From positions 1 to 59,264 of IMG/VR virus record IMGVR_UViG_3300009481_000013: 59,264 nt of DNA; one strand, given 5' to 3'. This stretch comes from a virus (Duplodnaviria; Caudoviricetes). The stretch's first letter is position 1. Each line of letters begins with the position of its first letter. A model generated the notes under the pieces. That model was not told the origin of the DNA. It did not search any database and saw only the letters and a list, made by a program, of their open reading frames with translations. The position numbers were made by a program, and so were the translations under genes. This document shows, one piece after another, positions 11,417-57,815 of this stretch.

Positions 11417-13939
11417 TTGGAGCGAGGAAACACAATGAATCAATTATGGGAACAAAAATGGCGTTCGTTTAGAAAAACTGAACCCCAATCAGCACCGGAG
11501 TACAACAAACCAAAATCTATTGATGAGGGCGGTCCGCTTCTTAGAGAACTTACAGAATTTGAATATGATAAGGTTGCTCACGTTGTTGGAAATGTAGACG
11601 CTGATGACTTATCGTTTGACAACATTTTTCAAGGTAAAAAAAGAATTGTTATCCCTTTTGTAGCTGGTCCAACTGGAGAGTTAAATAAGATAATCACATA
11701 TTTTGATAAAGCCGGTTACGAAATCGATTGGAACAATGGTCTAGTCGGAAAAGAGATAGAAACTCAGCGCGGGAAACAAATGCGCAAATCAAAGATTGGG
11801 AAATTTTTAAATAAAGCTATCTCTGTTCAAAAAAAGTTTGAAGCTTTGGCACTGACTCATAGCACTGCTGTTGGAAATGCACAAGCTCTTAGGAAAGAGG
11901 AAACAGAAGAAATAAAACAAAATCTTATTCGTCAAGGCGAAGGGGGGGGAAGTTATCGCATTAACCAAGAGGCTCGGAATATTTGGTTTGATAATGATAG
12001 AACTCCCGAATATAAAGTTATTCAAAAAACAATAGATGATTTTGAACTTAAAATGGATCAACTGCGCCGCAAAATTAATGATGAATTTGGTTCTTTTGTT
12101 TCTGCAAGAGAACTTGAAGCTATGCTTAAGTTTTGGAACGAAAAAGGAGACTTTTATCGCCAGAATCCTCAAGCAATTCAAGGCGAGGAAGGCAAATATT
12201 CACTTGTAATTACTCGTGCGCCGATTGATGTTCTTCGAATGAGCGATTTTGACGACATTACTTCGTGTCACAGCCCTCCCAACCGTGGCTCGCCGAATGG
12301 CGGGGGTTATTATGCTTGTGCAATAGCTGAAGCTAATGGTCACGGTCCTATTGTATATGTTGTAGAGAATGTTGACATTCCAGAAGATTTTGATTGGGAA
12401 GAAGACGAAGTATTTACAGACGATCATCGCGGAGTGAATGGGGTAGAGCCTATTTCTAGACTTAGAGTTAGAAAATTCGTAGACCCAGATAAAGAAATAA
12501 GTTTTGCTATTCCAGAGCTTAGAACTTATGGTAGAAAATTTCCTAATCTTGGAAATGCGGTTAATAATTTCTTTAGAAAATCTCAACCAGAAATAATGGC
12601 TAATCCTCCTTCTGACAAATTGTATAAATTGGAACGATATGGCGGCTCATATTCGGACAATACAGATGATAATCTTTTTAGAAGATTTTTCGACAATTCT
12701 ATTGCATATACTGGTAGTGCAAATCATCTAAATGACGATGAAGAAGAAGAATATGATGATGAGGAAGAGGCAGATTTAGAAGCTGAATATGAAGCAGAAT
12801 GCGAAGGAATTGATGCTCAATACAACAATCATCATACTCTTGAACACGCTTACGCAAGCTATGAAATTGAAGATTATGGTGACGGCGTAGCCGTCTTTAT
12901 GAACGGCGGAATGTCTATTGAGATTGATGAAGATGAAATGATCAATACTTTGCCCGATTGGAGAGGTCAGAACGAACTTTCAAAGCAGATTCAGGGTGAG
13001 TTAGATGTGTCTGTGAATGATATAAATTTTCAAGAATTTAACGGCTCACTTCACGTTCAACTAGATGCTTATACGAGCAACATCTATGAAAATACTCCAT
13101 CAGCTTATGAAGATTTTCTGAGATATAACGTTAAAGAATTAGATGATGGATATACTCAAATTTTAGCAACTGTTCGAAAAGTTTTAGTTGCGAATAAGAT
13201 TTTAGCACAAAACGCATTTGGAAGCCTCACGCTTGATGCCGAGGCACTTGATGATATTGGAGATAAATATAAACACTTTGACATAGAATATCACGATGGT
13301 GAACTTACTATCGATCTTAAAGAAGAATCAAAAATTCCTATTGACGTATCGCTTATTGTTGAGTTAAACAAAGAACTGGAGGGAACCCCTCAAAATGATG
13401 ATGCAAAATACAACGATTCTGTTCTCAGAGCAGGTCGACACAGTTTAAAACATTTTATTAAAACTCTCGAAGCAGACGGCTTTAAACATCAAGTGTGGTC
13501 AGGTATTGTCAGAATGATTGAGAATGCAGCTAAACAGATTGATCTTCCAGGTTTAGAAAATGACGTAAATAACGAAGTTAGCATTAAAATGCCTTTTGAA
13601 GATTTGAGTTTTTCGCCAGCAGGCAGGGGAATTACCCAAAATAATATTACAAAACCTTGGATTGCTTATACTGATCTGACAATGACTCTTACAGGTCTTG
13701 AAGAAAACGAAGATGTCATCATTGCAGTGAAGCTTATCGAATATATTGACGAACATTTTGAACGTGTTGCGGAATTCGTTAATAAAGAATTCAACAATTT
13801 TGCTAAAAGCGTAAACGATGCGATAAATAATGTGACCAGTTTATTTGAAAAAGAAAATATGGTAAATGAAGTGTTAAAAAGTATTCAGCCAAAAACGAAG
13901 AAAATAGTTATTGGTTTGCAAAGAAAAAAAACTAGTTAA
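11417..13939 (+). CDS. large hypothetical protein (probable virion protein; likely start 11435)
   Basis: 840-aa ORF, EQKWRSF tag, acidic linker; GAGG RBS before ATG 11435. Confidence 0.75.
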   Translation: MERGNTMNQLWEQKWRSFRKTEPQSAPEYNKPKSIDEGGPLLRELTEFEYDKVAHVVGNVDADDLSFDNIFQGKKRIVIPFVAGPTGELNKIITYFDKAGYEIDWNNGLVGKEIETQRGKQMRKSKIGKFLNKAISVQKKFEALALTHSTAVGNAQALRKEETEEIKQNLIRQGEGGGSYRINQEARNIWFDNDRTPEYKVIQKTIDDFELKMDQLRRKINDEFGSFVSARELEAMLKFWNEKGDFYRQNPQAIQGEEGKYSLVITRAPIDVLRMSDFDDITSCHSPPNRGSPNGGGYYACAIAEANGHGPIVYVVENVDIPEDFDWEEDEVFTDDHRGVNGVEPISRLRVRKFVDPDKEISFAIPELRTYGRKFPNLGNAVNNFFRKSQPEIMANPPSDKLYKLERYGGSYSDNTDDNLFRRFFDNSIAYTGSANHLNDDEEEEYDDEEEADLEAEYEAECEGIDAQYNNHHTLEHAYASYEIEDYGDGVAVFMNGGMSIEIDEDEMINTLPDWRGQNELSKQIQGELDVSVNDINFQEFNGSLHVQLDAYTSNIYENTPSAYEDFLRYNVKELDDGYTQILATVRKVLVANKILAQNAFGSLTLDAEALDDIGDKYKHFDIEYHDGELTIDLKEESKIPIDVSLIVELNKELEGTPQNDDAKYNDSVLRAGRHSLKHFIKTLEADGFKHQVWSGIVRMIENAAKQIDLPGLENDVNNEVSIKMPFEDLSFSPAGRGITQNNITKPWIAYTDLTMTLTGLEENEDVIIAVKLIEYIDEHFERVAEFVNKEFNNFAKSVNDAINNVTSLFEKENMVNEVLKSIQPKTKKIVIGLQRKKTS

Positions 13940-21961: not shown

Positions 21962-22259
21962 GGGGGATCCATGGTTTCGACAGAGTAAGGAGAATGATTC
22001 ATACAAGGAAGCCAGCCAACAAATGCTTTAAATCAGTGTTGGAAAGTATAACTGCAAACGATAATGTTGAACAGTTCGCTCCTATTGCTCTAGCAGCGTA
22101 GAAAGCTGGGCGTCAACTGCCTGGGAACAGAAAGTTGAAAAGAGAAGAATGAATGGTAGAATGGAATGTCAGTTGCTGGACTCAAACCAGCTAACCTTGT
22201 AAGTATTTGAATTATTTGAGTTATTTTGGACAGCGGTTCGACTCCGCTATCCTCCACCA
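21962..22259 (+). ncRNA. ssrA: tmRNA; tag ANDNVEQFAPIALAA* (22054-22101)
   Basis: GGGGGAT/ATCCTCC acceptor with G3:U70, TTCGAC, GGAC-AGCGGTTCGACTCCGCT T-arm, ACCA; internal tag ORF ending ALAA. Confidence 0.95.
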
Positions 22260-22312
22260 GAGTGAAAGCCAGCAAGAACTAGGCTTGACGCATCGGAGAG
22301 ACGATGATTTAT

Positions 22313-22856: not shown

Positions 22857-23124
22857 TTGCGTTAGGGAATCCACACTGGGGACAGTGCCCGCGCAATCAA
22901 ATTACCTCGCGTTGGTTTAAAATTGATGCGTTTTTAAGGGAAAACGCGCTCGCTCCTCGCGGAAGCTTAGAGATTGAACGAGCATATACGATCTGAGGAT
23001 GTTTTTTAGATAAGCCACTGGCGGCGGGTTGAAGCTCTTCGGAGATTATCCAAAGTAACTAGCTTATGACGGGAAAGCCACCGTGTGTTCGGCTTGACAA
23101 GGTACGGAGAGACGTCGCATTTGT

Positions 23125-23797: not shown

Positions 23798-23852
23798 ACA
23801 TCGAAAGCCGTAGATGTAGACTAGGTTTGACACTGGGAGAGACTGGAACTGT

Positions 23853-24939: not shown

Positions 24940-25013
24940 GTCCCAGAGAACTACTTGCTACCCAACTTGGACGGGAAAAAACGTAGTGACAGATTGGAGA
25001 GACGATCGCGAGT

Positions 25014-25101
25014 TAAGGGTTGGCAGAGTGGTTTAATGCGACCTCCTACAGGGAGGTGTCCCGAGACGGACCGTGGGTTCGAATCCCACACCCTACACTC
25101 A
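25014..25101 (+). tRNA. atypical class II tRNA with ACA anticodon (Cys decoder or pseudogene)
   Basis: ACCTC-CTACAGG-GAGGT arm, long variable arm, frayed acceptor, no CCA. Confidence 0.6.
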
Positions 25102-29633: not shown

Positions 29634-31171
29634 TGAAGATTAAGTTAAACAATCTGACAGTAACTCATCCAGAGCTATGTAAAAATTGGAGCCCTAAAAA
29701 TGAAAAAGGACCAGAGCATTATACAAAGAGGACAGCAAGAGAAGTTTTTCTTGATTGTCCCACTTGTAAATGTGAATATCTAACTAAAGTTGCAAATCTA
29801 ACGAGGGTTAAGGGTGAAACTTGTCCGAAATGTCGAATTGTTAACAACCTAACAACAACTCACCCAGAACTTTGTAAGGAATGGAGCCTCAAAAACGAAA
29901 AAGGACCAGAGCACCATACTGCCGGTGAAAATAAAAAAGTTTGGTGGGATTGTCCAACTTGCGATGAATCGTTTGATTCTTCTCCAAATTCTAGGACCCG
30001 CGCCGGGGTCGGTCGTGGTTGTCCCTATTGTTCAGGTCGTAAAGCAGGTTCTAATAGCAACCTAACAACAACTCACCCAGAACTAGTCAAAGAATGGAGT
30101 CCCAAAAATGAAAAGGGTCCTGAAGAATATACAAAAGGTTCAAATAAAAAAGTTTGGTGGGATTGTCCAACTTGTGAAATGACATATCCAGCCCCGCCCA
30201 AAAAACGTACCGTTGGTCGTGGTTGTTCCTATTGCGCCGGTAAAAGAGTATGTTCCAATAACAACCTAACAACAACTCACTCAGAACTTTGTAAGGAATG
30301 GAGCCTCAAAAACGAAAAGGGTCCTGAAGAATATATCAATGGCTCAGGAGAAAAAGTTTGGTGGGATTGTTCAGTTTGTAATGATTCGTGGAATGCTGCT
30401 ATTGTTAGCCGAGCGCGAGGCGCTGGTTGTCCCTATTGTTCAGGTCATAAAGCAGGTTCAAAAAATAATCTAGCAGTAATTAATCCTGATTTATGTAAAG
30501 AATGGAGTCCTAAAAACGAAAAGGGTCCTGAAGAATATACCCCAGGTTCAGGTTATAAAGTGTGGTGGGATTGTTCAGTTTGTAATGATTCGTGGAATGC
30601 TGCTATTTTTAGCCGAGCGCGAGGCGGTGGTTGTCCCTATTGTTCAGGTCAAAGACCTATTAAAAAGCTTCGCTCTATTCTTAAAGGGGTAATGTCTTTT
30701 ATCGATATCTTACCTTCATCAGAACTTTATGCTATCTTACAACAAGAGGGTGTTTCAAAGGCTAGATTAAAGAGAGTGTCAAAAGCAAAGAGGATTCTTC
30801 CTCCAAAAGATGTAGCTGCCTTCGTTGAGGGTGAAGAAGATACAACAGTAGAAGAGATGCTTCTAAAGGACGAAGAAGATTATTCTTTAGAGACCAAAGA
30901 ACTTCTAAAAGAAGGAGATAATCTGAGTGTTGAAGCTGAAGTAGATTTTTCAGACATTATGAATAAGAATGTTGATTCTCTTGTGTTTTTGATGAGCAAC
31001 AATTTTCGGCGCTGCTCTGATGATGATACTGCGACGTTTTTGATTGAGAAGGCAAAAGATCGAATTCGACAAGTAATAAACATAATAAGAGATAGAGATG
31101 GCAATGAAGCAGCAATGACTCATCTTCATTCTTCTTGGGCGTTGGCAGAGGAAAAGAGTAAAGTTGGATAA
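29630..31171 (+). CDS. zinc-ribbon (DUF4379-like) repeat protein
   Basis: five repeats THPEL.KEW..KN…KVWWDCxxC…GCPYC. Confidence 0.85.
   Translation: MMKIKLNNLTVTHPELCKNWSPKNEKGPEHYTKRTAREVFLDCPTCKCEYLTKVANLTRVKGETCPKCRIVNNLTTTHPELCKEWSLKNEKGPEHHTAGENKKVWWDCPTCDESFDSSPNSRTRAGVGRGCPYCSGRKAGSNSNLTTTHPELVKEWSPKNEKGPEEYTKGSNKKVWWDCPTCEMTYPAPPKKRTVGRGCSYCAGKRVCSNNNLTTTHSELCKEWSLKNEKGPEEYINGSGEKVWWDCSVCNDSWNAAIVSRARGAGCPYCSGHKAGSKNNLAVINPDLCKEWSPKNEKGPEEYTPGSGYKVWWDCSVCNDSWNAAIFSRARGGGCPYCSGQRPIKKLRSILKGVMSFIDILPSSELYAILQQEGVSKARLKRVSKAKRILPPKDVAAFVEGEEDTTVEEMLLKDEEDYSLETKELLKEGDNLSVEAEVDFSDIMNKNVDSLVFLMSNNFRRCSDDDTATFLIEKAKDRIRQVINIIRDRDGNEAAMTHLHSSWALAEEKSKVG
29647..30650 (+). repeat. intragenic tandem repeats (~205-215 bp) encoding zinc ribbons
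   Basis: near-identical DNA blocks, e.g. AAAAACGAAAAGGGTCCTGAAGAATATA and TGGGATTGTTCAGTTTGTAATGATTCGTGGAATGCTGCTATT. Confidence 0.85.
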
Positions 31172-31178
31172 ATGCAAT

Positions 31179-31689
31179 ATGTTAGGACAAGTATTTCATT
31201 ATTGGACTGTTAAATCAAGAGACCCTATCAAGAAAAGGTATTGGATTTGCTCTTGCAAATGTGGGAGTGAGAAATCTGTTTTTTGAAAGTAACTTAAAAT
31301 CAGAGAAGTCTAAAAGTTGCGGCTGTTGGGCAAAAGAAAAAGCATCCCGACCAAGAATAGATGACACCAATCCTGCTTTAAGAAGATTAATCCATTCCTA
31401 TCGATTCAATGCGAAGAGCAGAGGGTTAGAATGGAATCTTACAATAAAACAGTGTGAGGTCATTTTTCAAGAAAATTGTTTTTATTGCGGTGCTGAACCA
31501 AGCAAAGTAAGAAAGACAGGTATTAATCACTTTGTTTATAATGGGATTGATCGAAAAGATAACACCAAAGGGCATGATATTGGGAATGTTGTTTCTTGTT
31601 GTTTTATTTGTAATAGGGCAAAAAGTGTTCTAACAGTGGAAGAGTTTCTTGAATGGATTGAAAGAGTAAATACCTACCAACGCTCCTAA
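31179..31689 (+). pseudogene. HNH homing endonuclease split by +1 frameshift at T6 (31279-31284)
   Basis: frame 1 MLGQVF…WICSCKCGSEKSVF*; frame 2 ESNL…SCGC…CFYCG…GIDRKDN…NVVSCCFICN. Confidence 0.75.
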
Positions 31690-34092: not shown

Positions 34093-34176
34093 GGGATTGT
34101 GGCAGAGTGGCTTATGCACCTGACTCTTAATCAGCGCCGAAAGGCAACGTGGGTTCGAATCCCACCGGTCCCACCA
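34093..34176 (+). tRNA. tRNA-Lys(CUU) with long variable arm
   Basis: loop CT-CTT-AA, GCC-GAAA-GGC variable hairpin, ACCA. Confidence 0.85.
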
Positions 34177-34255
34177 ACAGGTGTAACTCAATTGGATTAA
34201 GAGTAACGGGCTTTTACCCTGGAAGTTGTGGGCATCCAATCCACCACCTGTACCA
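34177..34255 (+). tRNA. tRNA-Lys(UUU), degenerate T loop
   Basis: ACAGGTG/CACCTGT, loop CT-TTT-AC, ACCA. Confidence 0.7.
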
Positions 34256-34269
34256 TATCGGAGAAGAAA

Positions 34270-34530
34270 ATGATAGATATAGTAGGAAACGAAATCAAAG
34301 AAAGAGATGTCATAATATACGCCAACGATAATGGGTTTTTAACCTTTGCAATTGTTGAAAGTGTGAATGATGAACGTTTGGAAATCTTGGAAAAGGGTTA
34401 TCGAGATGTAGTACACAAAAAGGTCCTAGTAAGACCTAATAACACATTGTTGATAACTGGACAGATAGACCTACCTACGCCTGGGAATATTGATTCTCAA
34501 ATAAACTTTCTCAGGTCTTTAAAGAAGTAA
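34270..34530 (+). CDS. hypothetical protein
   Basis: GGAG RBS. Confidence 0.55.
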   Translation: MIDIVGNEIKERDVIIYANDNGFLTFAIVESVNDERLEILEKGYRDVVHKKVLVRPNNTLLITGQIDLPTPGNIDSQINFLRSLKK

Positions 34531-34547
34531 AGAGATTGATGATTTAT

Positions 34548-34820
34548 GCTCGTGCTGCCGTCGAATGATAGATCGTAGCCAACCGTTCTAAGGGGAGTCT
34601 CAGCTGAACCTGTGGATTGAAAATGAAGCAGGGAGAAAGACGAACTGAAGTTTGAGGATCGATAGGAGAGGGATAGCTTCCTCAAAAATGTTCCTCACGG
34701 AAGGCGAGCCCTGGAGAGTAGGAAAAGGTGCGAAGAGTAAGCACTGAAGTACAAAATCCTAGCGTTGTCCGACTCAGACAATGCAAAAAAGGCTTAGGGT
34801 TAAATTCCCTACACGGGCGC
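34548..34820 (+). ncRNA. large (~270 nt) structured RNA closed by tRNA-like acceptor stem and T arm
   Basis: GCTCGTG/CACGGGC, TAGGG-TTAAATT-CCCTA, AGCC/GGCT, GAGTC/GACTC pseudoknot, followed by T8. Confidence 0.6.
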
Positions 34821-34842
34821 TTTTTTTTAACTGGAGATAAAT

Positions 34843-35460
34843 ATGAGTGCAAGTTTGCTTGGACATATGATGGAAGAATTGATTGCTGCTGGTGTTGAGA
34901 TTCACCTCACGCCAAAGAAATCAATCGATTCAGATGATGGCGGCAAGATGTCCGGCGCTTTCTCAGAAGATGATAAAATACTCGAAGTAGCCTCAGGAAG
35001 AGATGACTGTCTTCAAGTATTCGCACACGAATATTGTCACTTTAAACAATGGCAAGATGGACTTTTTGAAGACATTGAAGTTATTGCTGCATATTCGTGC
35101 TTTACTCCTTGGCTTTTGAGGCAAAGAGAGCTTTCTGAAGAACAACTTGAGCTTTTTATTCGTAAAATGCAATGGCTTGAGATGGAGAATGAAAAGAGGA
35201 CAGTAAAACTCTTGAAGAAGTTTAAAGTTGATTTTGATGAGGAAGAATATATCACCAAAACCAACATCTATATGCACTCATATGAGTTGTGTAAAAGAGT
35301 TCGTAAATGGCACAAGAAAGCACTTTATGATCTTCCTGAACTAATGGAACTAGTTTCAGGAGAAGAGTTTCTAAAAGAAGAAGATTTTGGTGAATTGCCA
35401 GAAGGATTTGAAGCGATAGCGATGCAATGCTACGACTTCACAAAGGAAGAAGAGGAATAA
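34843..35460 (+). CDS. zincin-like metallopeptidase
   Basis: FAHEYCHFKQW…LEMENE; GGAG RBS. Confidence 0.7.
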   Translation: MSASLLGHMMEELIAAGVEIHLTPKKSIDSDDGGKMSGAFSEDDKILEVASGRDDCLQVFAHEYCHFKQWQDGLFEDIEVIAAYSCFTPWLLRQRELSEEQLELFIRKMQWLEMENEKRTVKLLKKFKVDFDEEEYITKTNIYMHSYELCKRVRKWHKKALYDLPELMELVSGEEFLKEEDFGELPEGFEAIAMQCYDFTKEEEE

Positions 35461-47028: not shown

Positions 47029-47373
47029 ATGACAGAAGAAAATATTAAAACGCTAACTGAATTGGAGGCAGAAGCTCAAGCAGAGTTGCAACAACCTGTA
47101 GAGCCTATCAACCCTTTGAAAGCTTTTTTTATAGAATATGTAGGCAATAAATACAAGCCTGAAGATGGTGCAGTGACGGTTGAGATGTGCGTTCAAGCTT
47201 TAGGTGAAGATTTCCCAGAGTTTTTGGTGCCTGTGTGTGAGCAAAACTTCTTTCTTGGTTATAATCAATGTGAGGCAGATATTCGAACAGCACTTACCGC
47301 TCGTGACGCAGCTAAGGAAACTGAAGCAAGTGTTGATTTAGATGAAACAGAGGATGTAGTCATTAATGAATGA
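47029..47373 (+). CDS. hypothetical protein
   Basis: AAGGA RBS. Confidence 0.65.
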   Translation: MTEENIKTLTELEAEAQAELQQPVEPINPLKAFFIEYVGNKYKPEDGAVTVEMCVQALGEDFPEFLVPVCEQNFFLGYNQCEADIRTALTARDAAKETEASVDLDETEDVVINE

Positions 47374-48040
47374 TTACGGAGTAAAAACCTATATCAAGCA
47401 GACAGCAGGAGGACTACAACAAGAACTTTTGTTTAACCGCATTATTGTTTATCAGCAAAATCCACTCCCAGATGGAATCGAAATAAAGAATCTCATTCAG
47501 AGCATCGAGGAAAAGGTTCCTCAATTTTTATGCAACGATATCGATTCTATTTTCGTCGGTCAGTTTTCTTTTTTGAAAGAAAAAGATCTAGAAGCTGTTT
47601 ACGAAAACGGCGCCATCTACATCAGTAATGAGCAAGATAACGAGCAAGATTTTTTGTCAGATATTGTTCACGAAATAGCACATTCTGTTGAAGAGATATA
47701 TCCGCTTGACATATATGGAGACAAAACAATAGAAAATGAATTTCTCATAAAGCGTAAAAGTATGGCAGAGATTTTGAATGCTCACGGCTTTAAAGAGTAT
47801 GATATGGCATCTTATGCTGAAACAGAATACTCAGTTGAGTTTGATACTTATTTGTATCAGCACGTCGGATATGAACTTCTTCACACGCTTTTGCAGGGAT
47901 TGTTTGTTTCGCCATATGGCGCTACCTCATTGAGAGAATATTTTGCAAATGCATTTGAAGAATTTTATGCTGGAGATACGTATTACGTTAAATCTATTTC
48001 TCCAGCTATCTATAGAAAGATAATCGACATTCAAGGTTGA
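47366..48040 (+). CDS. zincin-like metallopeptidase
   Basis: HEIAH…Y…REYFANAFE. Confidence 0.7.
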   Translation: MNDYGVKTYIKQTAGGLQQELLFNRIIVYQQNPLPDGIEIKNLIQSIEEKVPQFLCNDIDSIFVGQFSFLKEKDLEAVYENGAIYISNEQDNEQDFLSDIVHEIAHSVEEIYPLDIYGDKTIENEFLIKRKSMAEILNAHGFKEYDMASYAETEYSVEFDTYLYQHVGYELLHTLLQGLFVSPYGATSLREYFANAFEEFYAGDTYYVKSISPAIYRKIIDIQG

Positions 48041-49212: not shown

Positions 49213-50562
49213 ATGACTGACAAAACCCTTACCTTTTCTGACAAAGTAGAAGAGCTTGCAACTGTAACAAAAATTCCCACCAAGAAAATAAAAATCTTAA
49301 CTATCGGAGACCACCCAATGTCTCCTTCTGGTGTTGGTACACAGACTCGCTATATGATTGAGCACTTACTTTCTACAGGAAAATATCAGTTCATTTCTAT
49401 GGGTGGAGCAATAAAACATCACGATTATCGCCCTCAAAAGACGGAAGAATGGGAAGAAGATTGGATTATGCTTCCTATTGATGGATATGGCAACCAAGAT
49501 TTGGTTCGCTCCCTTATTCTGGCGCACAAGCCAGATGTTCTTTGGTTTATGACTGACCCAAGATTTTATGGTTGGTTGTGGAATATGGAAGAAGAAATTC
49601 GCCCATTTGTCCCTATGGTTTATTATCACGTTTGGGACAACTATCCGTTCCCTAAGTTTAATAAGCCGTTTTACGATTCAAATGATGCTATTGTAACGAT
49701 TTCTAAGTTGACTGACAACTGTGTAAGAAATGTTTCACCTGAGGTAAAGTGTATTCATTTGCCTCACTCAGTAGATACTGATGTTTTTAAGAAGCTGCCA
49801 GATGATGACATTGAAACTTTCAGAAAAGGCGCTTTCCCTAAAGAGGAAAAGGATTCAAAATTTACTTTTTTGTGGAATAGTCGCAACGCCCGTCGAAAAC
49901 AATCGGGTTCATTAATTTTTTGGTTCAATGAGTTTCTTGATAGGGTGGGTCGTGATAAAGCACGATTGATTATGCATACCGATCCTAAAGATCCTAATGG
50001 ACAAGATTTGGAAGCAATCATTCACGAACTTGGTTTAACCAATAGCGAAGTAATGTTTTCCCGTGCCAAGCTTCATTCACTTGACTTAGCAAACTTGTAC
50101 AATATGGCAGATTGCACTCTTAGCGTTTCAGATGCTGAAGGGTTTGGTCTTTCAACAATGGAATCCATCGCTTGTGAGACACCTATTATCGTTACTATGA
50201 CTGGCGGTCTACAAGAACAAGTAACCGATGGCGAGAACTGGTTTGGTATTGGTCTAGAACCATCTTCAAAATCTATTATTGGTTCACAAGATGTTCCCTA
50301 TATCTACGAAGATCGCCTTGCAAAAGAAGATGTCATTGCAGCATTAGTGAAAATGTATGAAATGAGTCCAGAAGACCGCGCCGCACTTGGTAAGGCTGGT
50401 CGCGAACACGTTCTTAAAAACTATAACTTCAAAGATATGATTAATGGTTGGGACGATATTTTTACCGATATTCATAAAGAATGTGGCTCTTGGGATAATC
50501 GCAAGGGATATGATAGATGGACTTTCGAAGAAATGGGTAAAGCCAAGAAGGAGGCAGCGTGA
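49213..50562 (+). CDS. glycosyltransferase (GT-B, family 4-like)
   Basis: RNARRKQ, EGFGLSTMESIAC. Confidence 0.88.
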   Translation: MTDKTLTFSDKVEELATVTKIPTKKIKILTIGDHPMSPSGVGTQTRYMIEHLLSTGKYQFISMGGAIKHHDYRPQKTEEWEEDWIMLPIDGYGNQDLVRSLILAHKPDVLWFMTDPRFYGWLWNMEEEIRPFVPMVYYHVWDNYPFPKFNKPFYDSNDAIVTISKLTDNCVRNVSPEVKCIHLPHSVDTDVFKKLPDDDIETFRKGAFPKEEKDSKFTFLWNSRNARRKQSGSLIFWFNEFLDRVGRDKARLIMHTDPKDPNGQDLEAIIHELGLTNSEVMFSRAKLHSLDLANLYNMADCTLSVSDAEGFGLSTMESIACETPIIVTMTGGLQEQVTDGENWFGIGLEPSSKSIIGSQDVPYIYEDRLAKEDVIAALVKMYEMSPEDRAALGKAGREHVLKNYNFKDMINGWDDIFTDIHKECGSWDNRKGYDRWTFEEMGKAKKEAA

Positions 50563-51812
50563 AAAGGATTGTAATCAAGGGACCAGCTCTTAGTGCGTCA
50601 GGATATGGGGAACAATGCAGGTTTGCCCTCAAATCTCTCATGGCTCACGAAGAAAGGTTTGAAATATATCTTGAAAATATTAGCTGGGGTAAAACTGGCT
50701 GGATTCCAATGGATAGTGAAGAAAGAAACATTATTGATCACCTTATCGGCAAGACAATGATTTATGTTCAACAAGGCGGAACGTTTGATATTTCCTTGCA
50801 AGTAACAATTCCAAATGAGTGGGATCCTAATCTTGCTCCCTATAATGTTGGTTATACAGCTGGTATTGAAACAACTCGTATTTCTCCTCAATGGATTGAA
50901 GCGAGCAATAAAATGGATAAAATCATTGTTGTATCTAACCACGCTAAAGCTGGCTTCGACCACACTGTCTATAAGGCGCGCAATGAGCAGACAGGAGAAG
51001 AGAAAGAGTTCAGAACGACAACTCCAATAGAAGTTGTTAACTATGCGTTGCGCAAGAGTAAGCCAGCAAAGCTAGATTTAGAGCTTGAGAATGATTTCAA
51101 CTTTTTGACAGTTTGTCAATGGGGACCTCGTAAGAATCTTGAAGCTACTATCGTTAGCTTTATGGAAGAGTTTCACGATGAAGATGTGGGTTTGGTTGTA
51201 AAGACCAATATTGCTAGAAACAATGAAATGGATCGACAACATTGCCGCTTGCGCTTCGACGATTTTCTAGCGAACTTCCCTGACAGAAAGTGCAAATTGT
51301 ACCTTGTACACGGCAATCTTTCTTCTGAAGAGATGGCAGGACTTTACACACATCCAAAAATTAAAGGTATTGTTTCAACTACACACGGCGAGGGATTTGG
51401 TTTGCCACTTTTCGAAGCTGTATGTCACGGTTTGCCAGTGATTGCTCCTAACTGGAGTGGGCAAGTGGACTTCCTTTATGCACCTGTAAAAGATAAGAAG
51501 ACTAAAAAGATTAAGCAACGTCCTCATTTCCTTAAAGTTGATTTTGAATTGAAACAAGTTCAACAACAAGCAGTATGGGATGGAGTGGTTCAAGCGGATT
51601 CTAAATGGTGTTTTGTTAAGAAGAGTAGTGTTAAACAAAATATGAGGAATCTATTCAAAGAGCTTCAAAAGCGTCAATCACTCGCAAAGAAACTTCAGAA
51701 ATATGTAATTAAAAAGTTCGAGGAAGAGGCTATTTTTGAACAGTTTGCTACTGCTGTACACGAGTCTGAAGATGCCTGGGAGAATGACCTAGATGAAATT
51801 GCAGAAGTCTAG
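50559..51812 (+). CDS. glycosyltransferase (GT-B, family 4-like)
   Basis: SGYGEQCR, RKN, GEGFGLPLFEA. Confidence 0.88.
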   Translation: MKRIVIKGPALSASGYGEQCRFALKSLMAHEERFEIYLENISWGKTGWIPMDSEERNIIDHLIGKTMIYVQQGGTFDISLQVTIPNEWDPNLAPYNVGYTAGIETTRISPQWIEASNKMDKIIVVSNHAKAGFDHTVYKARNEQTGEEKEFRTTTPIEVVNYALRKSKPAKLDLELENDFNFLTVCQWGPRKNLEATIVSFMEEFHDEDVGLVVKTNIARNNEMDRQHCRLRFDDFLANFPDRKCKLYLVHGNLSSEEMAGLYTHPKIKGIVSTTHGEGFGLPLFEAVCHGLPVIAPNWSGQVDFLYAPVKDKKTKKIKQRPHFLKVDFELKQVQQQAVWDGVVQADSKWCFVKKSSVKQNMRNLFKELQKRQSLAKKLQKYVIKKFEEEAIFEQFATAVHESEDAWENDLDEIAEV

Positions 51813-53409
51813 AAAGATTGTTTTCATAGCGGATTACTTCGTTGGAGAAGTTGTGGGGGGTGCCGAATGTAACGATTCGGTCCTCATTTCTTTTTTAGAG
51901 GCACAAGGTTATGAGGTTGAGAAGAGAGAGTCTCAACGTGTTCGCGTGTCTGACTTTGTCTCAAATGATGCTTTCTATATTGTTGGTAATTTTATTGGAC
52001 TCTCAGAAGATGTCAAATATACCATGGCTACTGCTGGTGTTGAGTATATAATTTATGAGCACGACCATAAATATTTAAAGTCACGCGACCCATCAAAATT
52101 TAAAAACTTCAAGGCTCCTTTGAACCAGATTATCAATCACGATTTTTACAGCAATGCGAAAGCCGTGGTTGTACTTAGCGAGATTTGCCAGGAGGTGATT
52201 TGCAAAAATCTCAACATCAATAATGTTTATAACATTGGATGCAGTCTGTGGGGGAAGGCTCGCCTTGAACTTTTGGAGCGCTTAAGTTATTCGAACAAAA
52301 CGGAAATGGTTTCAATTATGGAATCTAGCAACCCCACTAAAGGCACCGCAGCCGCTGTTGCGTTTTGTAAAAAGAATTCCTGGGATCCTCGTTTAATTCC
52401 AACAACTAAAATTCAAGAACAGTTTTTAGCAGATTTAGCTAAAACACATAAGTTGGTTTTTATCCCTCAAGTTCTTGAGACATTCTGTCGCTTGGCAGCT
52501 GAAGCTAAAATGCTCAACTGCACACTAATCACTAAGCCTAAAATGCTCGGGTTTGCAAGTGAAGCGTGTTTTGAGTTGCAAGGAAAAGAACTCATTGATG
52601 AAATGAGGCGTAGAGTCGACAAGGCGCTCAAGCTTTTCGAGGACTTGGTTGAAGGTAAAGAAGATACTGGCGACGGCAAGGTCACAGCCATTTTAAATTG
52701 CTACAAACGCCCACAACTTTTAAAAGAACAGATTCAGGCTTTAAGAAATCAATCTAATCCTCCTGACGAGATTTGGGTATGGGCTAACGACGATGGTCTT
52801 GAAGACAAACGTAGTCGTGCGTCACGCCTACGAACTTGTGGTGCAGACAGAGTTTTTAATAATGATCACAACTGGAAGTTCTATGGCAGATTCGCAGCTG
52901 CCTTGCTTGTCGACACCGAATATGTCGCAATCTTTGATGATGATACAATACCAGCAAAAGATTGGCTCTCAAACTGCCTAGAAACGATGGCAGTTAAGGA
53001 GGGCATCCTCGGTGGAGTTGGTTGCATACTGCCGGGAGACAGCTACTACGGGCACGAGAGAGTGGGTTGGAGTGCTCCCAACAAAGAGATAGTTGAAGTT
53101 GACCTTGTAGGTCACGCTTGGTTCTTCAAAAGAGAGTGGTTGCAATATTTGTGGAGAGAAAAACCACAAACTTGGGACAACGGAGAAGATATACAATTTT
53201 CTTATCTCGCTCAGAAATATGGAAATATTAAAACATACGTTCCCCCACACGACAAGCCAGAAAAGTTTAGCTCGACAAAGGGAATGGAGTATGGTATAGA
53301 TGATGTTGCAACTTCGAACACACGAAACCACGAAGTCTTCTATAAAGAGAGAAACGATTGTGTGAAGAATGCAGTTAAGAACGGTTGGAAAATCGTTAGG
53401 AGTCGATAA
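51793..53409 (+). CDS. two-domain glycosyltransferase (GT-B-like + GT2-like)
   Basis: ETFCRLAAEA; TAILNCYKR…FDDD…GED. Confidence 0.8.
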   Translation: MKLQKSRKIVFIADYFVGEVVGGAECNDSVLISFLEAQGYEVEKRESQRVRVSDFVSNDAFYIVGNFIGLSEDVKYTMATAGVEYIIYEHDHKYLKSRDPSKFKNFKAPLNQIINHDFYSNAKAVVVLSEICQEVICKNLNINNVYNIGCSLWGKARLELLERLSYSNKTEMVSIMESSNPTKGTAAAVAFCKKNSWDPRLIPTTKIQEQFLADLAKTHKLVFIPQVLETFCRLAAEAKMLNCTLITKPKMLGFASEACFELQGKELIDEMRRRVDKALKLFEDLVEGKEDTGDGKVTAILNCYKRPQLLKEQIQALRNQSNPPDEIWVWANDDGLEDKRSRASRLRTCGADRVFNNDHNWKFYGRFAAALLVDTEYVAIFDDDTIPAKDWLSNCLETMAVKEGILGGVGCILPGDSYYGHERVGWSAPNKEIVEVDLVGHAWFFKREWLQYLWREKPQTWDNGEDIQFSYLAQKYGNIKTYVPPHDKPEKFSSTKGMEYGIDDVATSNTRNHEVFYKERNDCVKNAVKNGWKIVRSR

Positions 53410-54467
53410 TGTTAGGTATTGCTTTTGGAACCAGACCTGAATGGATTAAGATTTTACCTGTTGTTAAGGAGTTAATCGAACGTGTTATTCCATTCAAATT
53501 AATAATCACAGGGCAGCATAGTGATCTTCTTAACTATAATAAAATAAGTGAAGACTTGTTTGATCGCGGTTATGATCCTGCTGATTGGAAGAAAGGTAAG
53601 CGAACAATGCGTGTGCTTGAAATAGCAACGCTTGATGATGCCAATAGATTAGATTCTATTGTTTCTAGTATTTTAAGCAAAAGTGATAATATTCTTGATG
53701 GGTGTACTTCCATTATGGTCCAGGGTGATACTACTTCAGCTTTTGCTTGTGCTCTTGCAGCCTTTCACAGACAGATTCCTGTGATTCACCTTGAAGCAGG
53801 GTTGAGAACGTATGTTTTGGAACAACCGTTTCCTGAAGAAGGAAATAGGCAGATGATCTCTTGTATTGCGAAGCTCCATTTATGCCCAACATATGAGGCA
53901 GAAGAAAATCTTTATTCTGAAAGAAAAGATTGGCAGTCTCTCGTTAAGACTACAGGAAATACTGTACTCGACAACATTCGAGATGTGAAGACGACGAACT
54001 TGAAGAGAGTGTTGGTAACAATGCATCGTAGAGAGAATCACGAACGTCTTGACGAGTGGTTTACAAATATCAATGCTTTGGCAAAAGAGAGACCTGACTA
54101 TGAGTTCTTGCTTCCCATTCATCCGAACCCTAATGTTTTGAAGCATCGTGATTTACTGACGCACGTTAAGGTGGTAGAGCCAATGGAGCACGATGAATTG
54201 ATCAAATACCTTGCCTCTTGCGAATATGTTATTACAGACAGTGGTGGAATCCAAGAAGAAGCTTGTTTCTTACGCAAGCCCACGATTGTTTGTAGAAAAG
54301 ATACAGAGAGAGAAGAAGGATTGGGAAACTTTTCGATGTTGTGTACTGGTCCAGAATTTCTTAGTGATATACACGGGCGACTTCACAAACTGAAGTGTGA
54401 GGGTCCTTGCCCCTATGGCGATGGTCATTCAGTAGAGAAGGTGGTAGATGCAATCCAAGGACTTTAG
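53409..54467 (+). CDS. wecB: UDP-N-acetylglucosamine 2-epimerase
   Basis: GTRPEWIK, TGQH, QGDT, HLEAGLR, PFPEE, HRREN, TDSGGIQEE. Confidence 0.95.
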   Translation: MLGIAFGTRPEWIKILPVVKELIERVIPFKLIITGQHSDLLNYNKISEDLFDRGYDPADWKKGKRTMRVLEIATLDDANRLDSIVSSILSKSDNILDGCTSIMVQGDTTSAFACALAAFHRQIPVIHLEAGLRTYVLEQPFPEEGNRQMISCIAKLHLCPTYEAEENLYSERKDWQSLVKTTGNTVLDNIRDVKTTNLKRVLVTMHRRENHERLDEWFTNINALAKERPDYEFLLPIHPNPNVLKHRDLLTHVKVVEPMEHDELIKYLASCEYVITDSGGIQEEACFLRKPTIVCRKDTEREEGLGNFSMLCTGPEFLSDIHGRLHKLKCEGPCPYGDGHSVEKVVDAIQGL

Positions 54468-55230
54468 AAAACATTTTTGGATGCTCCAAAAGAAGCTAAA
54501 GAGTGGTGAGAACTTTGCCTTCTCGCGTTATTCTGATGGTGAAATGATTATTATGCAGAATAAGCATTTGAAACTCGGTGACGAAAAAACGACCGTTGAT
54601 GGTGCAAACGCTGGCATTGGTTATGATAAATCAGATCATAAAGAATTTGATCCAAAGAAACATTCACATTTTAGAGATGAACTGCTCAAAGCCTATCAGC
54701 ATAAACAAGATAACTATTTTGTTGGTTTGAGTTGCCCGTGTTGTGTTGGTAAAGAGCAAAACAAATGGATGAAAGACGTTCGCGGCGGAGATGATAAGCA
54801 CTTGACTTGGGCGAATCTGTTTGTAAACTCAAACTATCCATATTTTCTAAACCATATTGTACCACTTTTGAAAAATAAAAAAGTATACATTGTGTGTAAC
54901 GAAAATGCTGATTTGAGTGAACTACCTTTTAAGGTGGAGAAAGATTGGCGTATTGGTTCAAACGCAATGATTGAAGATGCTGATTTGATTGATGGTATAG
55001 ATGGTTTCATTAATACGAATAAAGTGAAAAATGCAGTGTTTTTGTTCGCAGGTGCTTCTTTGACGAATTTGTTGATTGGTAGATTGTTCCCGACACATCC
55101 TGATAACACATATCTCGACATTGGAACAACGCTGAATCCACATATGAAGTTGCCTATTGCTAGAAATTATTTGAAGGGATATTTTTTAAAATCTGGCAAC
55201 ACAGAAATTTACAGGAGGTGTGTGTGGTGA
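54448..55230 (+). CDS. GT-D/DUF1792-like glycosyltransferase
   Basis: FSRYSDGE…LFAG…YLDIG. Confidence 0.65.
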   Translation: MQSKDFRKHFWMLQKKLKSGENFAFSRYSDGEMIIMQNKHLKLGDEKTTVDGANAGIGYDKSDHKEFDPKKHSHFRDELLKAYQHKQDNYFVGLSCPCCVGKEQNKWMKDVRGGDDKHLTWANLFVNSNYPYFLNHIVPLLKNKKVYIVCNENADLSELPFKVEKDWRIGSNAMIEDADLIDGIDGFINTNKVKNAVFLFAGASLTNLLIGRLFPTHPDNTYLDIGTTLNPHMKLPIARNYLKGYFLKSGNTEIYRRCVW

Positions 55231-55607
55231 ATGTTGTACACAATAAAAGAAAATATTGGGATTTCATTAGAAATCTTCGAAATGATTCGAGAGTAAAAAA
55301 AGGATTCATCCAACAGCACGAGATATCTCTTGATGAACATTACGACCACATGGGTCATTGCGCAGCTACATATAGGATTTGCCTTATTGAAGATAAGCCC
55401 GCAGGCTACGCCCGCGTTGATTATAGTGGAGACATTAGCGTTTGTGTCCACCCAGACTATCAGAAACAAGGTGTAGGAACGGCATTGATTGAAGATATTT
55501 CCTACTCAGACGCCTTTGCTAAAATAAAGATTGAGAATGAAGCAAGTCTGCGCCTCTTTGAGAAGTGTGGCTTCAAGAAAAAGTATTACATTATGGAGAA
55601 AGAATGA
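55218..55607 (+). CDS. GNAT N-acetyltransferase (PseH-like)
   Basis: VHPDYQKQGVGT…NEASLRLFEKCGF. Confidence 0.88.
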   Translation: MCVVNVVHNKRKYWDFIRNLRNDSRVKKGFIQQHEISLDEHYDHMGHCAATYRICLIEDKPAGYARVDYSGDISVCVHPDYQKQGVGTALIEDISYSDAFAKIKIENEASLRLFEKCGFKKKYYIMEKE

Positions 55608-56251
55608 AAGAAAATCCCTATGAAATTGTCAGAATGTTCGAGCGAGTAGTAGCAGAGTACACGGGTGCCCCTTATGCGGTATCGGTAGACTCTTGTACAA
55701 ATGCGTTGTTCTTGAGTCTTAAATATAAAGCTAAGCTTGAATCGTTACATCAACGTCTCCATACACATATCGTTATTCCAAAAAGAACATACCTTTCAGT
55801 ACCTCAATCAATTATTAGAGCAGGATACAACCTGGTATTCGATGAGCGCGAGTGGGAAGGAACTTATGATTTGATTGGCTCTAATGTAGTTGATGCAGCC
55901 AAACGCTTTACATCAAATATGTATGTACCAGGAAAGATGATGTGTCTTTCGTTTCACATTAAAAAGCATCTGAAGATTAGTAAGGGCGGAATGATTTTAA
56001 CAGACGATCCTGATGCAGTTGCGTGGCTCAAGAAGGCGCGATACGAAGGGCGCTCAGAAGGTGTTAGATATCAAGATGATGACATTGATATGTTGGGATG
56101 GAATATGTACATGACCCCTCAACAAGCAGCACACGGTCTTACTCTTATGCAAAACTTTCCAAAGGATAATCCAGATCTTCCTGAGGATCCACCATATAGA
56201 GATTTGACTGAGTTCACTATTTTCAGAAATACTCCGGTGTTGAAAAAATGA
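55604..56251 (+). CDS. short DegT/DnrJ/EryC1 sugar aminotransferase
   Basis: SCTNAL, DAA, SFHIKK, GGMI, GWN. Confidence 0.85.
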   Translation: MKENPYEIVRMFERVVAEYTGAPYAVSVDSCTNALFLSLKYKAKLESLHQRLHTHIVIPKRTYLSVPQSIIRAGYNLVFDEREWEGTYDLIGSNVVDAAKRFTSNMYVPGKMMCLSFHIKKHLKISKGGMILTDDPDAVAWLKKARYEGRSEGVRYQDDDIDMLGWNMYMTPQQAAHGLTLMQNFPKDNPDLPEDPPYRDLTEFTIFRNTPVLKK

Positions 56252-57123
56252 TTACATTTGTAGAGCTTGGAGTCTTGGGGCGACTGGGGAACCAACTTTT
56301 CCAATATGCTGCTCTTAAGGCACTGGGTTTGGAAAATGGCTATGACGTGCGTATTCCAAATCCAGCTACTCAGGTATGGCACAATCAGAAGTGTTTGCTT
56401 TCAGAGTTTAATCTTGAGTGCAAATATTACGATACCGATCTTCCTTTGTATATAAAATATCTCTATAACGAACGTGATCATATGAACTACGATCCCAATT
56501 TTTGGATCATTCCAGATGGTACAAACTTGAAGGGATTCTTTCAAAGTACACACTATTTTGAGAAACATTCTGAACAGATTAAAAAAGAACTGACACCTAA
56601 ACCTTGGCACCTCAAGAAAGCTGAAAAGAAAATAGCAGAAATAAAAGCAAAGTACCCTGGCTGTGATATTGTAAGCCTCCACCTTCGCCGAGGAGATAAC
56701 ACCGATGGTTCTAATATTTCGGTCAAGTTGAATCAGATGTATGATTCTTTCGAATCTGATTATGATGAGTATCTGGAAAAAGCGCTTCTCCAGTTTGATA
56801 GAAGAACCACTAAGTTCTTTGTATTCTCTGGTGGATCGCGCTCAGTAGGAAACGATAACACCGCAGATATGGAGTGGTGCAAGAAAGAGTTCTCAGGTGC
56901 TGAGTTCATCTTTTCTGAGACAAACGATACAATGGAAGATTTTTGTTTGATTAGGGCTTGTGATCACAATATCATCTCTCCAGTGAGTAGTTTCGGCTGG
57001 TGGGCAGCTTATCTAAATCCAAGCAAGGAAAAGATTGTAGTTGCTCCTAAACATTACCACCCAGATATGCCAGAATACAAGCACAGACCGGGATTTTACC
57101 CAAAGGATTGGAGACTATTATGA
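56248..57123 (+). CDS. alpha-1,2-fucosyltransferase (GT11)
   Basis: GRLGNQLFQYA, GFFQS, HLRRGD, SSFGWWAA. Confidence 0.9.
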   Translation: MITFVELGVLGRLGNQLFQYAALKALGLENGYDVRIPNPATQVWHNQKCLLSEFNLECKYYDTDLPLYIKYLYNERDHMNYDPNFWIIPDGTNLKGFFQSTHYFEKHSEQIKKELTPKPWHLKKAEKKIAEIKAKYPGCDIVSLHLRRGDNTDGSNISVKLNQMYDSFESDYDEYLEKALLQFDRRTTKFFVFSGGSRSVGNDNTADMEWCKKEFSGAEFIFSETNDTMEDFCLIRACDHNIISPVSSFGWWAAYLNPSKEKIVVAPKHYHPDMPEYKHRPGFYPKDWRLL

Positions 57124-57815
57124 AATTGATTTTTGATGTTGGCTATAATAGAGGCGACTTTACCTCTAAGTGTTTTGAGAAGTTCCCAGAGTGTAAATCG
57201 ATTGGTGTAGAAGCTAATCCTAATCTTGCTTATGCTGCCGAGGACACTCCAAATGTTACGGTGCTGAACAGGCTCGCTGCTCGTGAGGGCGATGATGACC
57301 TTGAGTTTTTCATTGAGCCAGACCAAGATGGTATCTCTACTGCTTCAAAAAAGTTTATGGAGAACTCACGTTTTTCAAAAGGAAGCGACAATCTTGCACC
57401 CCATTCAGCCGAATGGATTCCTCCTATTATGATTGAGACGATTACAATAGATGAGATGGTAGAAGAATATGGCAAACCAGATTTAATCAAAGTTGACGTA
57501 GAAGGTTATGAACTTGAAGTTTTAGCTGGATTAAGTCATAAAATCAATAGACTCTGCTTTGAGTGGCACGAAGAATTTTTAGATGAATTTGTTTTGTGTC
57601 TTGAAGAACTGGAGAGAATCGGATATAAAGAATATGGAATCATTGGCTACTTTGTTGAGCCAGATAAAATTGAGGGCATGACTTATTCCCCTCAAGGCGA
57701 TCCGTATATGGTAGAGCCAGAAAGCTATTTGTCACGCGAAGAGCTGCTTGACAATGTTAGAAAAGTCTGTTATCCTGAGCGCCGCATTAACTACGGAATG
57801 TTGTGGGCGAAATGA
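57120..57815 (+). CDS. FkbM family methyltransferase
   Basis: FDVGYNRG, EANP, IKVDVEGYE. Confidence 0.9.
   Translation: MKLIFDVGYNRGDFTSKCFEKFPECKSIGVEANPNLAYAAEDTPNVTVLNRLAAREGDDDLEFFIEPDQDGISTASKKFMENSRFSKGSDNLAPHSAEWIPPIMIETITIDEMVEEYGKPDLIKVDVEGYELEVLAGLSHKINRLCFEWHEEFLDEFVLCLEELERIGYKEYGIIGYFVEPDKIEGMTYSPQGDPYMVEPESYLSREELLDNVRKVCYPERRINYGMLWAK

Follow-up and report, generated by a model that had tools for sequence, protein, structure and literature searches.

A conserved and covarying non-coding RNA, framed like a tRNA at its ends, from the tRNA island of an uncultured phage

Introduction

What lies between two open reading frames of a phage tRNA island when the usual RNA searches call nothing there? 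The window studied here, i.e. the whole stretch of DNA that was analysed, is a fragment of an uncultured virus (59,264 nt, estimated to be 33% complete). Its tRNA island extends from 21.9 to 43.4 kb. The Rfam scan of the window gives one tmRNA and 22 tRNAs and the ARAGORN run one tmRNA and 26 tRNAs, all of them on the + strand. The true tmRNA (21962-22259), which is of the one-piece type, scores 99.4 bits and has the predicted tag ANDNVEQFAPIALAA, stands at the head of the island.

Inside the island, between an ORF that ends at 34530 and one that starts at 34843, is an interval of about 272 nt (34548-34820, + strand) which received no call in either scan. A sequence-only reading had proposed that this interval, called RNA-X below, encodes a large tRNA-framed non-coding RNA that is either related to manA, GOLLD or ROOL or new. 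ROOL and GOLLD are phage RNAs of unknown function that are located near tRNA islands (10.1101/2024.12.08.627333). We asked whether RNA-X is a real RNA, whether it belongs to a known family and what it may do.

Results

Homologues and distribution

The homologues were reached through relatives of the 205-aa protein encoded downstream of RNA-X, which led to two syntenic phage contigs. Both carry a copy of RNA-X in the same place as in the window (G001, 31007-31282; G002, 11555-11828), as judged by synteny and by a covariance model. All three contigs share the gene order, and their proteins are roughly 33-88% identical. The pairwise identities of the three RNA-X copies are 82, 76 and 72%, as compared to 72, 62 and 59% nucleotide identity in the adjoining gene and 51-58% in the 60 nt upstream. 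In other words, RNA-X is more strongly conserved than the neighbouring sequence, and the boundaries of conservation are the first and the last base of the closing stem. The sequence was identical to the window at RNA-X in four DNA runs, and a 151-nt seawater contig that spans 34580-34730 has one difference from it.

The G+C content of RNA-X is 49% (window: 39%). No conserved reading frame was found in RNA-X, as every + strand frame of the three copies contains 3-10 stops. The earlier statement that there is no ALAA-type tag is borne out: no frame for a tag peptide is conserved and the candidate frame stops early in the homologous copy L003.

The covariance model, denoted R1, has matches in 3 out of the 102 phage records that were searched whole. 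No match was found by blastn among 50,697 phage records (cultured phages). In IMG/VR, three pattern scans recovered no true copies beyond the two known contigs, and a pattern scan of the JGI metagenomes returned the same two and a near-duplicate of the G002 copy (L029, one difference). RNA-X is thus known from three related metagenomic phage contigs and one near-duplicate. Further IMG/VR pattern matches (1, 14 and 7 stretches) were chance matches, ruled out by nhmmer or by reading, and the single match of the GTDB genome scan was rejected as chance as well. R1 had no match in Xanthomonas phage XacN1 and G003 or in 47 PhoH-related records. It was likewise negative for 78 loci that encode relatives of the 205-aa protein and for 50 whole records of such relatives (17 of which are at least 90% complete). 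We note that the PhoH-related phages are not close kin, because the 205-aa protein and the phosphoesterase are both missing from them (0 out of 5 records in each case).

The search through relatives of a 224-aa protein added only one 6-kb fragment. This protein (47366-48040) is lineage-specific, contains an invariant HELAH motif, is 68-75% identical in the two sister phages and is without a match in Pfam or PHROGs. Logan contigs carry eleven closer relatives of the 205-aa protein (P0002-P0012, 50-71% identical), and additional copies of RNA-X are most likely to be found on these contigs. A search of the literature, with supplementary files outside its scope, found no description of such an RNA. 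Taken with the family searches given below, RNA-X probably founds a new structured-RNA family. Its distribution is very narrow, with only three informative sequences, all from a single restricted lineage of large tailed phages.

Consensus structure

The consensus fold was calculated with RNAalifold from the three sequences, which gave 78 pairs, 17 of them with compensatory changes. A loop-loop helix taken from an exhaustive scan of all column pairs was then added and the pairs were recounted. The final fold consists of 82 pairs with 97.6% of the cells paired. Compensatory changes are seen in 19 out of 82 pairs as compared to 6.7 +/- 2.0 in shuffles, with none of the 500 shuffles reaching 19, but these counts lean towards the fold because it was derived from the same three sequences. 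Slid controls gave 2-4 compensatory pairs. The minimum free energy of the single RNA-X sequence is unremarkable, with a z-score of -1.56, and 15 out of 200 shuffles fold as well. That RNA-X is the + strand follows from the many G.U pairs.

The fold is a five-way junction with nearly no linker nucleotides, and the sequence at the junctions is invariant and purine-rich. The order of the helices and the geometry of the junction are those of a tRNA with a long variable arm, in which the anticodon and variable arms have been replaced. The overall frame suggested by the sequence-only reading is upheld (the RNA is conserved and covarying, and has no tag), and its outer elements stood up well; the inner anatomy that it proposed is largely wrong.

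The acceptor-like closing stem P1 (GCTCGTG/CACGGGC, 7 bp) is formed by 34548-54 and 34812-18 and is paired in 100% of the cells, as the earlier reading had it. Its pair 2:71 changes from C-G to U-A in L003, and pair 3:70 is a U.G wobble in the window and U-A in both other copies. The 3' strand of P1, CACGGGC, is followed by a discriminator-like G34819 and by C34820 (34812-34820 in all); at this place the homologues have A-CC and A, respectively. A T8 run comes directly after the closing stem (34821-34828), again as noted before, and both homologues have T6 instead. The consensus terminator scan called no + strand terminator at the T8 run.

Hairpin A (34555-34578, + strand) is D-arm-like and consists of CUGC/GUAG and an inner GUC/GAU stem; it is 95% paired and shows no compensatory change. 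Its large loop has invariant GUCG and AUAG segments and a variable middle.

Domain B (34579-34704, 126 nt, + strand) is at the position of the anticodon arm. It comprises helices 3-10, in which compensatory changes occur in 10 pairs, and is closed by a stem of 34579-86 and 34697-704. Two long, irregular hairpins lie within it. Hairpin C (34588-34650) is capped by a GNRA tetraloop (34619-22) above three tandem purine-purine pairs. The tetraloop is GAAA, GAGA and GAAA in the three copies, closed by U-A, C-G and C-G, respectively. At 34600-07, in an internal-loop region of the same hairpin, 8 nt form the invariant palindrome TCAGCTGA (= UCAGCUGA). Hairpin D (34654-34696) is based on GAGGA (34654-58) paired with UCCUC (34692-96) and has an inner stem GAGGGA/UUCCUC with a UAGC loop.

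Domain E (34706-34795, 90 nt, + strand) is at the position of the variable arm. It comprises helices 11-14 and 16, with compensatory changes in 6 pairs, and is closed by GAGCC (34706-10) paired with GGCUU (34791-95). It contains hairpin F (34713-34759, with a 9-nt loop) and hairpin G (34762-34784, GCGTTGTC/GACAATGC, with a 7-nt loop). The latter had been recognised in the sequence-only reading, and its three compensatory pairs confirm it. Domain E also has A-rich internal loops, among them GGAAAA/GAAG, and an A6 linker.

The inner helices proposed earlier fared differently. The AGCC/GGCT stem has 1-2 broken pairs in L003, and GAGCC/GGCUU is better supported. The TTTGAGGA/TCCTCAAA helix has 1-2 broken pairs in the same copy, and so does the pseudoknot proposed between the GACTC loop and GAGTC at 34595-99. 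Jointly, these three helices do no better than 157 out of 500 shuffles. GAGGA/UCCUC, with its inner GAGGGA/UUCCUC stem, is likewise among the pairings with better support. The GACUC loop pairs with the loop of hairpin F instead: GAGU (34735-38, loop F) and ACUC (34772-75, loop G) form a candidate kissing-loop pseudoknot. All three sequences have its 4 bp, with GAGA/UCUC in L003 (U-A to A-U). This contact is suggestive only, because it shows one compensatory change after many comparisons in an exhaustive column-pair scan.

The T-arm-like hairpin, TAGGG-TTAAATT-CCCTA (34795-34811, + strand), has a 5-bp stem and a 7-nt loop. It had been described as a T-arm mimic, and the hairpin is confirmed: the stem covaries and the loop length of 7 nt is kept, but the loop sequence is not conserved. 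The hairpin adjoins the 3' strand of P1 without a linker, giving a 12-bp acceptor/T stack as in tRNA.

How tRNA-like or tmRNA-like is RNA-X?

The 7-bp acceptor-like stem and the 5-bp T stem with its 7-nt loop are present in all three copies and both stems covary. The T-like loop itself is UUAAAUU in the window (near-canonical), UUCAAUC in L003 (canonical) and GGAAGUU in L002 (not T-loop-like), i.e. the T-loop consensus is seen in only 1-2 of the 3 copies. Complementary di- or trinucleotides between the variable loop of hairpin A and the T-like loop can be found in each sequence, but comparison across the sequences does no worse, so the contact is not significant. None of the three copies encodes CCA at the 3' end. 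In the window, CCA is encoded by 25 out of 26 ARAGORN tRNAs, by all four tRNAs called only by Rfam and by the tmRNA (30 out of 31 overall). No anticodon loop is present in RNA-X, and the G3.U70 identity pair of tmRNA and alanine tRNA is absent, position 3:70 being U.G, U-A and U-A. A search for a parent tRNA of the tRNA-like half found none, the best candidate having 15 out of 25 identities.

Among the known RNAs, the class II tRNAs, i.e. those with a long variable arm, are similar in having five helices at one junction in the order acceptor, D-like, 'anticodon', 'variable' and T. They share with RNA-X the 7+5 bp coaxial stack and the 7-nt T loop, and in L003 the likeness extends to the loop sequences, UUCAAUC being canonical and the D-like loop having a GG. 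In contrast to these tRNAs, the lower arms of RNA-X are branched and 126 and 90 nt long, almost no linkers are left at the junction, there is no anticodon loop or CCA, and RNA-X is detected neither by RF00005 nor by ARAGORN. The tmRNA (RF00023) is likewise closed by a tRNA-like acceptor stem and T arm around a structured insert of a few hundred nucleotides, and both RNAs are encoded by phages with tRNA islands. RNA-X differs from tmRNA in that it has no model match, no ARAGORN call, no G3.U70, no encoded CCA and no tag frame. The inner architecture also differs, as RNA-X has two multi-helix arms on a five-way junction whereas tmRNA has a P2 helix and four pseudoknots.

Comparison with known RNA families

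The region 34480-34880 was compared with all 4,227 models of Rfam 15 using permissive filters and a threshold of E<=10. For the RNA-X of the window only DUF805b was listed, a 24-nt chance match of 10.9 bits (gathering threshold 35.6, E=3.3). One of the two homologous copies gave nothing and the other gave three rows at chance level (sno_ncR4, E=1.2; L31 leader, E=5.7; GNAS-AS1, E=7.7). The comparison with the group I intron, RNase P, tmRNA, manA, GOLLD and ROOL, which the sequence-only reading had put forward, was carried out, and neither these models nor that of tRNA match any of the three copies at E<=10. The same is true of the ribozyme families of Rfam 15 at this threshold, and no riboswitch or T-box family of Rfam matches the three copies. 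Of the earlier alternative 'related to manA, GOLLD or ROOL or new', the second half probably holds (no Rfam match in three copies), while no homology to the three named families was found. An attempt to map the RNase P regions CR-I, CR-V and P4 by eye onto GGAGAAAGA and GUACAAAAUCC was abandoned as the pairing fails in some sequences.

The tmRNA mode of ARAGORN reported nothing for the RNA-X copies at default settings. The tRNA mode, with introns of up to 260 nt allowed, called none of the three copies at default settings, and with lowered thresholds it made a different call in each copy.

GOLLD and ROOL resemble RNA-X in that they are phage-encoded, lie beside or within tRNA islands, are highly structured and have conserved junctions (10.1101/2024.12.08.627333). 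Unlike them, RNA-X has tRNA-like ends, is without an Rfam match in three copies and is much smaller; ROOL and GOLLD are described as large or over 800 nt (10.1101/2024.12.08.627333). The link between RNA-X and these RNAs is one of setting only (phage, beside tRNA genes) and not of homology.

In summary of its identity, RNA-X is a real RNA of a phage tRNA island: it is conserved, non-coding and covarying, and its ends are tRNA-like.

Genomic context

In G001 and G002, a gap of about 20-30 nt is all that separates RNA-X from the preceding tRNA-Lys(CUU) and tRNA-Lys(UUU). A 100-aa ORF (34228-34530) is located between tRNA-Lys and RNA-X in the window; it is absent from G001 and G002 and looks like a recent insertion in the tRNA island. 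The tRNA-Lys pair (window 34093-34176 and 34177-34252; L002 2524-2690; L003 2510-2690) is kept in the three phages and is unusually long (84 nt in the window), with an extended D arm of about 7 bp as judged by eye.

RNA-X is preceded by a leader, AAGAGATTGATGATTTAT (34530-34547, + strand), that resembles the leader of a tRNA-Val, GGAGAGACGATGATTTAT, the last 10 nt being identical. This 18-nt leader also resembles that of L002, where GAGAGAT occurs 11 nt before the RNA-X start; L003 is less similar. A shared promoter or processing signal is a possible explanation for the leader common to RNA-X and tRNA-Val. The octamer GGAGAGAC occurs in exactly four copies in the window (22295-22302, 23106-23113, 23836-23843 and 24996-25003), each 9-11 nt before the 5' end of a tRNA (Val, Ile, Glu and an odd 'Cys(aca)' call), and at least two of the copies have TTGAC(A/G) a few bases upstream. 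A degenerate form of the octamer precedes RNA-X. The octamer may be a phage promoter or a processing signal of the tRNA island. The 'tRNA-Cys (aca)' (25014-25098, 85 nt), with the octamer box upstream, was called by ARAGORN and not by Rfam. It is the sole tRNA call in the window without an encoded CCA and may be a second non-standard tRNA-like gene.

The gene downstream of RNA-X (34843-35460, + strand) encodes the 205-aa HExxH protein, whose fold is metallopeptidase-like by a weak structural resemblance. It has an invariant HEYCH motif and a confident model (pLDDT 91); Foldseek gave weak metallopeptidase-like matches (minigluzincins, IrrE/PprI), the best of them with E=0.22, and Pfam and PHROGs gave nothing usable. 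The gene adjoins RNA-X on the same strand in all three copies. The start codon is 14 nt after the T8 run in the window and 14-20 nt after the U-run across the copies; since a gap of 14 nt has no room for a promoter, RNA-X and the downstream mRNA must be co-transcribed. The protein family is widespread in large phages that have no RNA-X, where its gene is often directly after a tRNA. In Xanthomonas phage XacN1 the gene of this family adjoins that of a peptidyl-tRNA hydrolase. RNA-X is absent from all 78 other loci and from all 50 whole records of the relatives of the protein. In L131, where the protein is 53% identical, a tRNA-Tyr and no RNA-X is found in the same slot before the same gene, which suggests that RNA-X fills a tRNA slot without being tied to the 205-aa gene.

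The 3' end of the window (49213-58774) carries genes of a glycosyltransferase, a UDP-GlcNAc 2-epimerase, an aminotransferase and an FkbM methyltransferase, a sugar-modification cluster that is unusually large for a phage.

Discussion

The explanation that we favour, at a probability of about 45% and thus tentatively, is that RNA-X is a stable, trans-acting RNA built on the scaffold of a tRNA top half and matured like a tRNA. The top half would serve as a handle for maturation and stability, and RNA-X would be produced together with the neighbouring tRNAs or in the same manner as they are. Its 5' end may be cut by RNase P, and its 3' end would be set just after the discriminator, by the closing stem and the U-run and/or by trimming. 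As CCA is not encoded, the RNA is probably not aminoacylated. Domains B and E, with their invariant purine-rich junctions, GNRA tetraloop, tandem G.A pairs and loop-loop contact, would be the working part. This part would most likely act in trans during infection, by binding a protein or complex that works in translation or tRNA metabolism and serving it as a platform or decoy; such a decoy or scaffold function is proposed by analogy.

Precedents for such an arrangement exist. The species 1 and 2 RNAs of phage T4 are non-tRNA RNAs that have an acceptor/T-like minihelix and are matured by RNase P. In the engineered 'tRNA scaffold', the lower half of a tRNA accommodates a chosen RNA, which the cell then processes and stabilises like a tRNA; this is a laboratory design, of which RNA-X would be a natural counterpart with two inserts. 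RNase P cleaves model hairpins made of acceptor stem, T stem and T loop as well as pre-tmRNA, 4.5S RNA and the phage M3 and C4 RNAs (PMC11143913). The non-tRNA substrates 4.5S RNA, phage M3 RNA and C4 antisense RNA carry an acceptor/T-like minihelix (PMC11143913), as RNA-X does. The non-tRNA substrates, i.e. 4.5S, M3, C4 and the T4 species 1 and 2, are smaller and simpler than RNA-X. RNA-X has a substrate-like geometry and may be processed by RNase P.

The tRNA-scaffold reading is further favoured by the position in the tRNA island, by the tRNA-Lys before RNA-X, by the tRNA-Tyr in the corresponding slot of L131 and by the tRNA-Val-like leader, and the 78 loci and 50 records in which relatives of the next gene lack RNA-X speak for independence from that gene. 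There are also points against it. L002 lacks the T-loop consensus and the contact between the D-like and T-like loops is not significant. CCA helps bacterial RNase P and is not encoded in RNA-X. Co-transcription with the next gene would fit a cis-acting leader as well.

Such a leader or attenuator of the 205-aa HExxH gene, in which P1 and the U-run would terminate transcription unless a signal (a ligand, a protein or a tRNA) remodels the fold, is the most immediate alternative, and we regard it as unlikely. The same strand, the same neighbour, the distance of 14-20 nt from the U-run to the start codon and the U-run after P1 are all found in three out of three copies, and the 5' strand of P1 can also pair with 34704-34709 in each of them (alignment columns 1-6 with 160-165), a possible alternative conformer. 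This alternative pairing, however, shows no compensatory change and consists mostly of G.U pairs in L003; the consensus scan called no + strand terminator, and no riboswitch or T-box family matches. What weighs on this idea from the side of the gene is that its family does without RNA-X in 78 out of 78 other loci and in L131, where a T-run precedes the gene although there is no RNA-X. Less likely again is an RNA-only, self-assembling particle, i.e. a smaller analogue of the ROOL and GOLLD nanocages in which exposed palindromes or loops would hold the copies together. The setting in phages and near tRNA islands (10.1101/2024.12.08.627333), the invariant palindrome and the invariant junctions and loops that have no apparent partner would fit such a particle. 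But the consensus fold has part of the palindrome paired, neither sequence nor model comparison links RNA-X to ROOL or GOLLD, and its 272 nt make it far smaller than those RNAs, described as large or over 800 nt (10.1101/2024.12.08.627333). The energy gained by cofolding RNA-X as a homodimer is uninformative on this point, because any sequence gains energy as a dimer.

A ribozyme, self-cleaving, self-splicing or RNase-P-like, with an active site formed by the conserved junctions, appears improbable to us. The size and the conservation of the junctions are typical of catalytic RNAs and the 30 tRNA genes around RNA-X need processing, but no ribozyme of Rfam 15 matches the three copies at E<=10, no arrangement of P4, CR-I and CR-V as in RNase P could be traced by eye in the alignment, and the exon-like tRNA halves that would flank such an element are absent. 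A diverged member of a known tRNA-derived class, i.e. a second tmRNA or a tRNA gene with one or two introns, has been largely refuted and is very improbable. In its favour are the closing topology, an acceptor stem and T arm around a large insert as in tmRNA, and the tmRNA that the phage already carries, but the models for both classes find nothing in RNA-X at E<=10. ARAGORN calls no tmRNA, and with introns allowed its calls are 0 out of 3 at defaults and inconsistent at low thresholds. Position 3:70 is U.G or U-A instead of G.U, and CCA, a conserved tag frame and an anticodon loop are all missing.

Beyond the tRNA-scaffold reading as such, RNA-X might represent a new class of functional tRNA-derived RNA in the sense that tmRNA is one, with the top half giving entry to the machinery and the two domains carrying a new activity. 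We consider this unlikely. The top half would enter machinery that measures the distance from acceptor end to elbow, i.e. RNase P and the CCA-adding enzyme, and perhaps also tRNA-targeting defence nucleases or the ribosome. The new activity might then be to sequester or misdirect a host factor of tRNA-directed defence or of translation, or it might be the formation of an RNA-only particle like ROOL and GOLLD.

Outside the classic families, large non-coding RNAs with an intricate fold are, to our knowledge, rare, and every new one has tended to bring new biology to light. RNA-X would be a natural functional RNA on a tRNA top-half scaffold, and it would be the third, and a much smaller, enigmatic structured RNA of phage tRNA islands beside GOLLD and ROOL. 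A length of 272 nt puts it within reach of chemical probing, crystallography, cryo-EM and pull-downs, which would make the role of the tRNA-island RNAs more tractable.
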